DNA of 49,755 nucleotides from Candidatus Heimdallarchaeota archaeon (GTDB lineage: Archaea; Asgardarchaeota; Heimdallarchaeia; Hodarchaeales; Hodarchaeaceae), in the NCBI GenBank assembly GCA_019057635.1, contig DXJL01000174.1, forward strand, positions 1 to 49,755, read 5' to 3'. The stretch's first letter is position 1. Each line of letters begins with the position of its first letter. Made by a program: the position numbers and the translations under genes. The notes under the pieces were generated by a model that did not search any database, had not been told where the DNA came from, and saw only the letters and a program-made list of their open reading frames with translations. This document shows, piece after piece, positions 25,421 to 39,254 of this stretch.

Positions 25421-25523
25421 CGGGCCCTGTGAGATTTGAACTCACGACCTCTATTGAGGGATCATATAAGGAAAGATCCTTGCTCCGGAGGCAAGCGCTC
25501 TGTCCATGCTAAGCGAAGGGCCC
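25421..25523 (-). tRNA. tRNA-Arg(CCG) with 28-nt intron at about 41/42 (25453-25480)
   Basis: GGGCCCT/AGGGCCC acceptor, CTTGC-CTCCGGA-GCAAG anticodon arm, GTGAG-TTCAAAT-CTCAC T arm. Confidence 0.9.
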
Positions 25524-25727: not shown

Positions 25728-25835
25728 TGGCGGATCCGAGGGGATTTGAACCCCCGACCTGCGACTTAGAAGGCCGCCGCTCTTTCTAGAAGCTCTAACC
25801 ATGCAAAAGCTTTATCCTGGCTAAGCCACGGATCC
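25728..25835 (-). tRNA. tRNA-Arg(TCT), CCA encoded, D-loop intron about 20/21 (25784-25813)
   Basis: GGATCCG/CGGATCC-G-CCA; GCGGC-CTTCTAA-GTCGC anticodon arm. Confidence 0.92.
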
Positions 25836-37050: not shown

Positions 37051-37515
37051 TCATGAATCCTTTTCAAAAAGTTCTTTTCTAATTTTAGAACTACTCAATT
37101 TTGTACCCTTATTTGTAGTCACAATTGCAGAGAGAATGAGAATTAATGGAGATTTTTTTAACATGTTTCTCTCGCGGTTGATGGCTAGTGCTCCCGAATA
37201 TGTTTCTTGTGAAACTAATAGTGCTAGTAAATCGGATTTGCTTGCAATTTGTCCATCTTGACCTAAAGAATCAATTTTGACAATGGAACATCTATTATTA
37301 CGGGATTTGAAATAGTTCACGAGTGCTGAATGACGTTTGCTGAATGGAAGTATGTGATCTCCAAGCACTTTAGGGTGATTATGTAAATATTTTTCACTAA
37401 TCAACCCAATTTGGATATATTCTGAATAATGTAACGCAAGATCCAAAATTAGTTTATGACCAGAATGGAGACGATCAAAAGTTCCACCTAAACCTAATTT
37501 TTCAAATTTGGACAT
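37051..37515 (-). CDS. coaD: Phosphopantetheine adenylyltransferase (archaeal/eukaryotic type)
   Basis: GGTFDRLHSGHK, VSQET, KLSSSKIR. Confidence 0.88.
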   Translation of the reverse strand: MSKFEKLGLGGTFDRLHSGHKLILDLALHYSEYIQIGLISEKYLHNHPKVLGDHILPFSKRHSALVNYFKSRNNRCSIVKIDSLGQDGQIASKSDLLALLVSQETYSGALAINRERNMLKKSPLILILSAIVTTNKGTKLSSSKIRKELFEKDS

Positions 37516-37570: not shown

Positions 37571-37586
37571 GAAAAGCTTTTTTATC
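37571..37586 (+). promoter_or_regulatory. BRE/TATA-like promoter for the + strand RNA
   Basis: GAAAAGC-TTTTTTATC, similar to GAGAAGCTTTTATTATC (about 6057) upstream of the EF-1beta operon. Confidence 0.45.
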
Positions 37587-37604: not shown

Positions 37605-37882
37605 AACGCAAGGAAGGAATATATTCTACTCTCGAGGACACGATGAGCCAAGATGATTCGGAGTGCAAATGAGTAGAGAAATCCTGAGCGGTTACTACCA
37701 TATGAATTAGGAGACGGGCTCTCGCATGAGGATGGGTGTGTCACCCAACAATGAGCGATAGGGTTAACCCTCCTAAGCGACAGGAGTAAGGGTCATAAAG
37801 CCCTTCATAAGAGAACTAGGCTGAATTTGGGATCCTCCCGTATATGTGGTCGCAGTGTTAGTGTTAAGGGCGACAGATCCAA
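37605..37882 (+). ncRNA. Unassigned structured RNA with K-turn motif(s)
   Basis: GC-elevated intergenic block with nested helices; G-U pairs favour the + strand; canonical K-turn CGC-AAG-GA-AGGA / TCCT-GA-GCG. Confidence 0.6.
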
Positions 37883-37961: not shown

Positions 37962-39254
37962 CTAATCTGAATACGTATAGATTTTGATATTTAGGGGAAT
38001 CTTTGTTATGTCGTGCTGTCGGGCACCAACAATGTTTTGTACCCCCCGACTTGAGGCAATGTCCAACAACCTTTGGGTGATGATCCCATCAAAAATCACA
38101 GTTTCAATATTTTCTGTGTTAAGGATTTTGTCTCGAAGATCACTGATGGGAATATTTTCCTCAATTATCTTAGAATTTTTGTCGAATAATGTTGCTTGTT
38201 GCTCTGGAAGATTTTCCACAACTTGAAGAAACTCGGGTGGTATTTTAGCTTGACTTGCTGGTTCTGATTTTCGTCTAATGACTATAGGAATTTCTTTTGT
38301 CACAAAATCATTGTCTTCAGATTCGTCTGCAGTACTTTCTGAAAAGTCATCATCCTCTGGGGTAATATTGAGCTCTTTCATAATCTGTTCAATAGGTATT
38401 TTTGTACGAAGCGCTTTCAGTATTTCCTTACTTGATAATTCTTCAACTTCGTGGTTTGCTGGTGCTCTAGCAACGTAATCAAGATCTGCAAGATGAATTA
38501 GTTCACGTAAAATGAGATCACCTCCATGATCCCCATCTAAAAATGCAGTTGTTACTTTTTTTCGTGTTAGATCAACAACCTCAGGCGGAACATCTGTTCC
38601 TTGCACAGAAATGACATTTCTAAATCCGTGTTTCAATAAATTAATTACGTCAGCACGTCCTTCCACAATGATGAGATTATCGCTATCCAAAACCCCAGGA
38701 CCTGCAGGTAATGCCGCTTTTCCAAATTTTTGGATAATACTTACTCTTGCTTCCTTCAGAACTTCATCTAAGACTGAAACTGAGTCAGGTGCAACCTCAT
38801 GATCCCATGTTTTCAAAATTCTAGAAGCCCGCTGAACGATTTGTCGTCGTTTGCTCTCACGTACGTCTTCAATCTTGAGTAGATTGATTTTTCCAACACA
38901 AGGACCAACTCTATCGACCGTTTCTAAAGCAGCAGCAAGTAAGGCTGTTTCGACACGATCCAATGAGGATGGAATAATAAGTGTCCCAGTTGTTTTTCTT
39001 TGTCTCTTTTGGTATTGCAGCTTTACAGCTATTCTACCTATTCTTGAAGTTTTTTGTAATTCACGTAAATCAAGCCCTTCGCCAATTAAACCTTCGGTTT
39101 GGCCAAATAACGCGCCAATAATGTCAGAGCGTTCAGCTACTCCGTTTATTGAGAATTTTTCGTGAATTAAGTATTTAACAGTGCTAGTATCGATATCTTC
39201 TTCATTAGCCATTGAAGTTTCATCTCCAAATTTATGCGATGAAACAACACTCAC
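37962..39254 (-). CDS. dnaG: Archaeal DnaG (exosome-associated primase-like protein)
   Basis: GALFGQTEGL..DLRELQK, TOPRIM VEGRADV and FLDGDHGG. Confidence 0.95.
   Translation of the reverse strand: MSVVSSHKFGDETSMANEEDIDTSTVKYLIHEKFSINGVAERSDIIGALFGQTEGLIGEGLDLRELQKTSRIGRIAVKLQYQKRQRKTTGTLIIPSSLDRVETALLAAALETVDRVGPCVGKINLLKIEDVRESKRRQIVQRASRILKTWDHEVAPDSVSVLDEVLKEARVSIIQKFGKAALPAGPGVLDSDNLIIVEGRADVINLLKHGFRNVISVQGTDVPPEVVDLTRKKVTTAFLDGDHGGDLILRELIHLADLDYVARAPANHEVEELSSKEILKALRTKIPIEQIMKELNITPEDDDFSESTADESEDNDFVTKEIPIVIRRKSEPASQAKIPPEFLQVVENLPEQQATLFDKNSKIIEENIPISDLRDKILNTENIETVIFDGIITQRLLDIASSRGVQNIVGARQHDITKIPLNIKIYTYSD

Follow-up and report, generated by a model that had tools for sequence, protein, structure and literature searches.

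The hairpins of archaeal box H/ACA guide small RNAs (sRNAs) are about 65-75 nucleotides (nt) long, and the eukaryotic H/ACA small nucleolar RNAs (snoRNAs) combine two hairpins with H and ACA boxes and lack a kink-turn (K-turn). The subject here is a single-copy RNA gene of 274 bases at positions 37607-37880 on the + strand of a 49,755-nt stretch of DNA (the window) from Candidatus Heimdallarchaeota archaeon (contig DXJL01000174.1), which probably encodes an Asgard form of the multi-hairpin box H/ACA guide sRNAs of archaea, directing pseudouridylation of the large-subunit ribosomal RNA (LSU). The probability of this assignment is put at roughly 0.7, and no description of H/ACA guide RNAs in Asgard archaea was found in full-text searches (supplements and figures not covered). 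The published rules for archaeal H/ACA motifs ask for a lower stem of 7-9 base pairs (bp), loop strands of 5-11 nt, an H2 of 5-6 bp, a GA stem of 8-11, a K-turn or kink-loop (K-loop) for L7Ae, and an ANA box (mostly ACA) located 14-16 nt from the closing pair of the upper stem (PMC2377435, PMC4652768). Pab40/Pf7 of Pyrococcus is a stable sRNA composed of three motifs, each of which combines a K-turn or K-loop with an ANA/ACA box, and its motif 1 guides the pseudouridine psi2588 in the 23S rRNA of P. abyssi (Table 1 of PMC2377435). The sR-h45 RNA of Haloferax volcanii is a 210-nt multi-hairpin H/ACA sRNA with LSU sites at the peptidyl-transferase centre (PTC) and at helix 69; its stem-loop SL1 has an AUA box, and its SL2 is active at 17 and 19 nt, which are atypical distances (PMC7075261). 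In yeast, snR46 guides psi2865 of the 25S rRNA, a position which a review table gives as conserved in human and located at the PTC (PMC8307265).

Like Pab40/Pf7, the RNA of the window consists of three hairpin domains (RNAalifold with refinement by hand), each of which closes on itself, and no pairing of its 5' end with its 3' end is seen. Each hairpin is modelled with a K-turn or K-loop and with an ANA/ACA box 3' of the lower stem. The RNA differs from Pab40/Pf7 in its longer hairpins of 84-91 nt, in boxes that lie within clamped internal loops, in an extra basal K-turn on hairpin 1, and in hairpins 2 and 3 that are without the canonical geometry of 14-15 nt and 5-6 bp and without a usable pocket. 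It differs from sR-h45 in having three hairpins, where sR-h45 has two and a 56-nt linker. Among 20 sequences of the genus 94.6% of cells pair, compared with 33-48% in slid controls, and 10 of the 44 pairs show compensatory changes; among 54 homologs 89.3% of cells pair, compared with 36-44% in controls, and 39 of 44 pairs are compensatory, in an alignment that was fitted to the model and thus favours the structure. The covariation that the initial annotation of this DNA had proposed to look for in related genomes is therefore abundant. The energy of the single-sequence fold is no better than that of shuffled sequences (z of -0.64 on the + strand and -0.43 on the - strand), so that the case for the structure rests on the comparative data.

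The same alignments revise the earlier fold in part. Domain 2, previously drawn as a multibranch junction, is one long irregular hairpin instead. The local hairpins that had been proposed for domains 2 and 3 pair in 72% of cells in the 20 genus sequences, one of them being broken by a G-to-A change in 3 species, and AAGGGU/GCCCUU, an internal GGAUC pairing and GUCGC/GCGAC pair in 49-79% of cells. The long-range helices UUAGGAG/CUCCUAA, GGCUCU/AGGGUU, GGGUC/GAUCC, GCCCU/AGGGC and CAU/GUG pair in 99.3% of cells. In the domain 1 part of that fold the canonical K-turn and the helix UUCUACUC/GAGUAGAG stood up well, as did the K-loop, whose closing stem covaries.

The RNA product of the locus is stable and abundant, with a length of about 274 nt. 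Four RNA-labelled public runs from four metatranscriptome studies each yielded one contig that is 100% identical to the window, spanning 37608-37870, 37637-37871, 37660-37847 and 37629-37795, respectively, with word depths of 35-219. None of the four runs covers either flanking gene and the share of sampled words is about that expected with the RNA alone present, so the transcript that the initial annotation had suggested looking for is there. The longest contig begins at 37608, the predicted 5' end; as assembled contigs these data leave the exact ends and the strand to other evidence. The + strand is assigned because invariant G-U pairs (GU in 20/20 genus sequences in one example) would become A-C mismatches on the - strand.

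Hairpin 1 carries most of the case for an H/ACA identity. As modelled it has the published geometry of the archaeal guide motif, with an 8-bp lower stem, a pocket of 6/6 nt, a 6-bp upper stem with one bulge, a GA stem of about 9 and the ANA box at 14 nt. The lower stem shows compensatory changes at 4 of 8 pairs in the genus and at 8 of 8 across the phylum, one pair being A-U in 8/20 and G-C in 9/20 genus sequences, and a pair of the upper stem occurs as U-A (10 sequences), C-G (5), A-U (2) and G-C (1). The position 3b.3n of the K-loop is U.U or G.A in 17/20 genus sequences and G.U in 3, in the alignment as we read it; in two species (G006 and G016) the K-loop is replaced by a true stem. The 5' guide strand reads UCGAGG in 51 of the 54 aligned homologs and ACGAGG in one, the other two being without hairpin 1. 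The box is positioned 14 nt 3' of the closing pair of the upper stem in all 20 genus sequences and in 19 of 22 further homologs outside family f3 (model-fitted alignment; f-numbers denote families as labelled in this analysis). It reads AAA in 13, AUA in five and ACA in two of the genus sequences, and ACA in 17 and AUA in two of the 22 others, with three off register. Hairpin 1 is also closed at its base by what the alignment marks as a fourth, canonical K-turn of the RNA, whose pairs G-C, C-G, G-C, G-C and A-U are kept in 18-19 of 20 genus sequences; this basal K-turn is present in other Asgard classes and not evident in family f3.

The combination of a terminal K-turn with an internal K-loop in hairpin 1 recalls box C/D sRNAs and U3, in which K-turns are bound by L7Ae or Snu13, and it could be laid out in the order C...D'-C'...D. 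A box C/D sRNA directing 2'-O-methylation, or a composite with hairpin 1 as the C/D part and H/ACA motifs elsewhere, would also agree with a weak match to SNORD48 at 37636-37684 (15.9 bits, E 0.49), and Pab21 has been reported with and without a C/D motif (PMC2377435). The boxes read AAG/AAU-GA-AGG and N-GA and not RUGAUGA/CUGA, so that no C/D consensus is present; in the would-be D' box the N belongs to a covarying stem pair, and the SNORD48 match lies far under the gathering score of that family (36). The spacers of archaeal C/D RNAs are single-stranded guides of about 12 nt, whereas those of hairpin 1 would measure about 24-28 nt and form covarying pairs with each other. A C/D identity is accordingly given very little credence.

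In an archaeal H/ACA guide the two pocket strands pair with the target RNA to either side of an unpaired U-N, and those of hairpin 1 were scanned as a bipartite guide against the organism's own rRNAs and shuffled controls. The best site in an f3 genome is the LSU sequence UUGC-UA-CCUCGAUG with 12 bp, a score equalled in 7 of 300 shuffles (2.3%), and in a genus genome the same LSU site, UUGC-UU-CCUCGA, is found with 10 bp, as good in 3% of shuffles. At this site UCGAGG pairs with CCUCGA(UG) and GCAA with the UUGC just 5' of the target uridine. The predicted target lies two nt 5' of CCUCGAUG, which is universally conserved in the LSU, and we take it to be position 2496 in E. coli numbering, at the base of helix 89 near the PTC. 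In the LSU locus of G001 no GAUGUCGG was seen.

Published modification sites can be placed alongside this uridine through numbering offsets. The yeast 25S tables list psi2865 (snR46), m5C2870 and Um2921, in agreement with an offset of 369 (PMC8307265, PMC5699541), and the Pab35 sites 2549, 2672 and 2697 of P. abyssi correspond to the sites of RluE, RluC and RluB, giving an offset of 92 (PMC2377435). By these offsets, which are our own, the hairpin 1 target would equal both yeast psi2865 and P. abyssi psi2588, the site guided by motif 1 of Pab40/Pf7. The likeness to yeast snR46 and its human counterpart, which guide the same conserved LSU pseudouridine, is thus one of target site and not of compared sequences. 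The hairpin 1 target is judged about as probable as the H/ACA class itself.

It is proposed that the K-turn or K-loop of each hairpin would serve as the L7Ae site and the ANA/ACA box as the Cbf5 site. Pairing of UCGAGG and GCAA with LSU 5'-UUGC-U-N-CCUCGA(UG)-3' would then place one uridine in the active site of Cbf5 for conversion to pseudouridine. The genome of the window (G000) encodes the DKCLD domain of Cbf5 (56.2 bits, in a 334-aa frame) and Nop10 (43.4 bits).

Hairpins 2 and 3 follow the same plan as hairpin 1, with atypical pockets. In hairpin 2 the lower stem has 7 bp and the tandem-GA motif lies about 12 pairs above the small loop; both this second K-turn-like element and the GGGUG/CACCC helix of the earlier fold were borne out, the helix changing from G-C to A-U in 4 of 20 genus sequences. 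In 3 species AGGGU carries A instead of G at its third position, and a U-G pair thereby becomes U-A. In most lineages the ACA box is positioned 14 nt beyond the GGCUC/GAGUC helix, and AACCC is located 14 nt upstream of it; among the 48 of 54 rows that could be parsed ACCC occurs in all 48, AACCC in 40 and the extension ACCCAG in 12. The GGCUC strand is fixed in the 54 homologs while its partner varies, which hints at a constraint beyond pairing. In hairpin 3 the three lower helices pair in 100% of cells in the genus, and the upper stem is exchanged between lineages (UCGGC/GCCGA, UUGAC/GUCAA, UCAACU/AGUUGA, UUAGC/GCUAA, UUUUUU/AAAAAG and others, 4-8 bp). It is bordered by N-GA and UGA-N K-turn strands in most lineages, the window copy having GU for GA. 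The loop measures about 9/7-9 nt and the ACA box, invariant in the genus, is also present in homologs of f14, f8, f9, f22 and f25.

Candidate targets for these two hairpins can be named with low confidence. In hairpin 2 AACCC(AG) is the complement of (CU)GGGUU in the LSU, a stretch that directly precedes a uridine (U2586), with poor pairing on the 5' side and no statistical significance; GGGUU there precedes the uridine that equals H. volcanii psi2605, which is guided by SL1 of sR-h45 (PMC7075261). The alternative is the loop of the GTPase centre, where GGGCUCU/AGGGCCC and ACCCU/AGGGU would make 12 bp, again not significant, and the candidate registers of hairpin 2 differ between lineages. In hairpin 3 the invariant GUUA starts 16 nt before the ACA, and U1915 and U1917 of helix 69 would fall at 17 and 19 nt, the distances reported for SL2 of sR-h45, in duplexes of only 4 + 4-5 bp that are not above shuffles. 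Unlike sR-h45, hairpins 2 and 3 have proposed pairings that are short, with 4-7 bp on one side and a poor other side, and that do not rise above chance. Bipartite scans of the two hairpins with several pocket definitions and gaps of 2-3 nt gave no result that beats shuffles. A regular expression for the predicted hairpin 3 target has no match in the rRNAs, and in five genomes the counts of the target pattern equal those of a reversed-pattern control. The 3' strand of hairpin 3 can form 10 bp with AAGCACUAAC of the genus LSU, a pairing in which no uridine stays unpaired; GCACUAAC is absent from the f3 LSU rows examined and the match was treated as chance.

It is therefore worth considering that only hairpin 1 is a guide, and that hairpins 2 and 3 belong to an H/ACA-type ribonucleoprotein particle (RNP) with a non-guide role, for instance as a snR30- or U17-like chaperone of large-subunit assembly acting at the GTPase centre, helix 69 or the PTC. 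In this variant, which is judged unlikely, the basal K-turn and the clamp helices would produce a rigid particle carrying four L7Ae.

The scaffold that the initial annotation favoured goes further, as a new L7Ae-bound scaffold or rRNA-processing RNA in the manner of U3 or snR30, whose K-turns would organise an RNP with conserved loops that contact pre-rRNA or proteins. The three to four K-turn or K-loop motifs, known as sites of L7Ae, speak for it, as do the extra basal K-turn and clamp helices. The loops of hairpin 2 (GGGCUC, AACCC, GUGUGUCAC) and hairpin 3 (GAGAGAAC, GAGUUAGUG) are invariant across the phylum and have no canonical target, and the fixed GGCUC strand with its varying partner would also suit such a role. 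It is the K-turn part of that proposal which holds; the novelty of the scaffold does not, as hairpin 1 agrees with all the geometric rules for H/ACA motifs and its predicted target corresponds to an established guided site, and in hairpins 2 and 3 an ACA stands 3' of the lower stem at H/ACA-like distances. Complementarity to pre-rRNA, another of the checks suggested earlier, is at chance for the rRNA with 1.5-kb flanks (the best score of 14 is attained in 22 of 100 shuffles, and 132 matches compare with a mean of 129), and the Rfam U3 model gives no match at E<=10. Single-stranded guide spacers, as in box C/D sRNAs, are likewise absent. The scaffold is improbable, to a similar degree as the non-guide variant, and a U3-like role finds no backing in these searches.

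Other known classes can be set aside with more confidence. Rfam at gathering scores gave no match for the RNA in the whole window, and at E<=10 on the region only weak and implausible matches to snoRNAs and long non-coding RNAs, in keeping with its original description as an unassigned structured RNA that is not RNase P, SRP or 5S RNA. A divergent RNase P/MRP or signal recognition particle (SRP) RNA would fit in size, and the stretch of hairpin 3 that reads AGAGAACUCGGCU in some species recalls conserved region CR-V of RNase P; the likeness to CR-I/CR-V was dropped because this part is variable and behaves as a covarying local stem. The same genome has its RNase P RNA (128 bits) and its SRP RNA (86.6 bits, cut-off 96.5) on other contigs, and the two ends of the RNA are not paired together, whereas paired ends and a P4 pseudoknot characterise RNase P and MRP RNAs. 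Open reading frames (ORFs) of 68 and 44 aa on the - strand overlap the locus and could suggest a small protein gene, but neither has a Pfam match and the substitutions are compensatory in the helices. A cis-regulatory leader would need a gene to follow on the + strand, and there is none. All of these readings are scarcely credible.

Several observations weigh against the H/ACA assignment. The box of hairpin 1 is AAA or AUA in 18 of 20 genus sequences and ACA in only two. The target of hairpin 1 is supported at a modest p of about 0.02-0.03, with one of three hairpins giving it, the two tests are not independent because guide and target are both conserved, and the duplex of the 3' guide strand has only 4 bp. 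The loop of hairpin 2 measures just 3/4 nt at the canonical distance in the genus, and that of hairpin 3 is positioned 13 nt from the ACA if AACU/AGUU is counted as upper stem or 16-21 nt from the stem flanked by the K-turn, neither of which is canonical. For hairpin 2 the bipartite rRNA match is equalled by 34.5% of shuffles and for hairpin 3 by 53%, so that neither outdoes the shuffled controls. All three boxes lie in internal loops that are closed by extra clamp helices (CC/GG and GGGUC/GAUCC in the window, AUAAUCA/UGAUUAU and GCAUAGA/UCUAUGC in f14), an arrangement that to our knowledge has not been described for archaeal H/ACA RNAs. No Rfam H/ACA family matches the RNA. A search for Gar1 (PF04410) gave no match in G000, a genome of 91.6% completeness, and also missed it in 1 of 4 archaeal control genomes. 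The likeness to Pab40/Pf7 and sR-h45 is one of published description and not of compared sequences, and the numbering equivalences are provisional. The most likely account is nevertheless an RNA of a known kind with an unusual build, as opposed to the founder of a new class.

The RNA is conserved throughout the genus and recognisable well beyond it. The genome of the window has one copy, and blastn detected the element in each of 21 further genus genomes (identity 73-100%) and in 0 of 19 genomes of other families. A covariance model was built on hairpins 1 and 2 and not on the full-length RNA; zeros in its searches mean not found, as the filter loses weak matches. At E<=1 it finds one copy in 39 of 83 genomes of the class (f1 21/21, f3 16/31, f5 1/12), with families f2, f4, f6 and f7 not found, and at E<=0.1 one copy in 52 of 151 sampled genomes of the phylum, among them f14 (20/25), f20 (5/5), f17 (5/19) and f8 (2/4), and none in 26 genomes of f11. 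The exact two-motif pattern occurs in 21 public records of metagenome-assembled genomes, mostly labelled Hodarchaeota, Heimdallarchaeota or Promethearchaeota. The single copy per genome speaks against the multi-copy spread expected of a miniature inverted-repeat transposable element, which had been named earlier as an alternative. Two homologs (L122 of G105, f22, and L123 of G098, f19) take a two-hairpin form, the fetched DNA showing hairpins 2 and 3 but nothing recognisable as hairpin 1, and one homolog of f5 (L092, G073:C66) is a lone hairpin-1-like element, AUCGAGGAC...K-loop...GUGCAAAA, that is followed by neither hairpin 2 nor hairpin 3; these forms fit a modular, multi-motif RNA. The f5 element is directly downstream of a small ORF that resembles a zinc-ribbon ribosomal protein. 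In L022 (G011), one species, the linker between hairpins 2 and 3 has an insertion of about 36 nt, other linkers being 4-8 nt long, and in L024 the 3' part of hairpin 3 occurs once more as a partial copy at 1337-1422 (G009:C251), which is 78% identical over 86 nt and lies at a distance of about 0.9 kb from the full gene.

Table 1. Features of the RNA gene, with positions in the window and the basis on which each was assigned.
Feature	Position	Strand	Basis
Hairpin 1, predicted H/ACA-type guide motif with extra basal K-turn	37607..37690	+	structure, covariation, geometry
Basal K-turn, bulged strand GC-AAG-GA-AGGA	37608..37618	+	partner UCC-U-GA-GC at 37682-37689
Hairpin 1 lower stem UUCUACUC/GAGUAGAG, 8 bp	37624..37631 with 37671-37678	+	covariation
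Hairpin 1 pocket, predicted 5' guide strand UCGAGG	37632..37637	+	conserved in homologs
Hairpin 1 upper stem and K-loop (U-GA...GAU-GA-U)	37638..37664; stem 37638-43/37658-64, loop 37644-57	+	covariation
Hairpin 1 pocket, predicted 3' guide strand GCAAAU	37665..37670	+	GCA(A/U) conserved in non-f3 rows
Hairpin 1 putative ANA box, AAA in the window	37679..37681	+	spacing from upper-stem closing pair
Hairpin 2	37697..37785	+	alignment, covariation
Hairpin 2 clamp CC/GG; small loop ACG/AACC; CGC/GCG; apical GGGUG-UGU-CACCC	within 37697..37785	+	alignment
Hairpin 2 lower stem UUAGGAG/CUCCUAA	37707-13/37770-76	+	long-range pairing
Hairpin 2 helix GGCUCU/AGGGUU	37717-22/37760-65	+	long-range pairing
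Hairpin 2 tandem-GA K-turn-like motif	37726-30/37750-54	+	alignment
Hairpin 2 putative ACA box, 14 nt 3' of the GGCUCU/AGGGUU helix	37780..37782	+	invariant in genus
Hairpin 3	37790..37880	+	alignment, covariation
Hairpin 3 clamp GGGUC/GAUCC; CAU/GUG; loop AAGAGAACUA / GCAGUGUUA; variable apical hairpin	within 37790..37880	+	alignment
Hairpin 3 lower stem GCCCU/AGGGC (with CAU/GUG, 5+3 bp)	37800-04/37867-71	+	100% pairing
Hairpin 3 upper stem GGCU/GGUC	37819-22/37848-51	+	covaries across lineages
Hairpin 3 degenerate K-turn, GA opposite GU	37823-24 / 37846-47	+	window copy
Hairpin 3 putative ACA box, one nt after the lower stem	37873..37875	+	invariant in 20/20 genus sequences
T-rich TATA-like box CTTTTTTATC, putative promoter	37577..37586	+	read from sequence; about 22-30 nt upstream of the RNA 5' end

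The RNA gene is flanked by two genes on the - strand, a cytidylyltransferase-like gene at 37051-37515 and a Toprim/DnaG-like gene at 37962-39254. The GC content is 45-49% in the RNA block and 27-33% in the adjoining spacers, and conservation in the genus alignment ends abruptly at 37607/8 and 37880, so that the non-coding, GC-elevated block on the strand opposite to both neighbours had been delimited closely from the start (37605-37882). The BRE/TATA-like motif noted upstream survives as a T-rich, TATA-like box, and a T-rich block is found at the same offset in relatives; its role as a promoter at the usual archaeal distance is read from position and composition and would be plausible. In family f3 (L070-L077 and L084-L091) a conserved AAAAAACTTCAAGATA-like motif is located about 45 nt upstream of the RNA. 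The gene neighbourhood is not fixed, because 4 of the 5 f3 loci checked have tRNA-Val(CAC) downstream of the RNA, in the same orientation and at a distance of about 100 nt. The window also has two tRNA matches on the - strand, at 25421-25523 and 25739-25794, the first of which, at 103 nt against a 71-position model, probably contains an intron.

The rRNA searches showed some further features of these genomes. Isolated elements of about 305 nt, found at G000:C70:9958-10264 and also in G008:C8, G002:C65, G001, G003, G011 and G013, correspond to just the 3' end of the archaeal LSU model, positions 2721-2973 (139-227 bits); they are set apart from the rRNA operon and some genus genomes have two copies. 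The small-subunit rRNA match of L083 (G008:C9:1695-3919) is 2225 nt long against a model of 1478 positions, and the LSU match of L078 (G028, f3) is 3424 nt against 2987 positions, both of which suggest large insertions.

The covariance model and annotation of this RNA would fill a gap in hundreds of Asgard genomes. Its boxes in clamped internal loops, fourth K-turn and two orphan hairpins make it a test case for what Cbf5, Nop10 and L7Ae tolerate. Should the variant in which only hairpin 1 guides be true, the RNA would represent an archaeal forerunner of the eukaryotic non-modifying H/ACA RNPs. If hairpin 1 acts as predicted, a pseudouridine adjacent to the PTC would be RNA-guided in Thermococcales, in Asgard archaea as the archaeal relatives of eukaryotes, and in eukaryotes (psi2865 in yeast), and this would support an early origin of the site.

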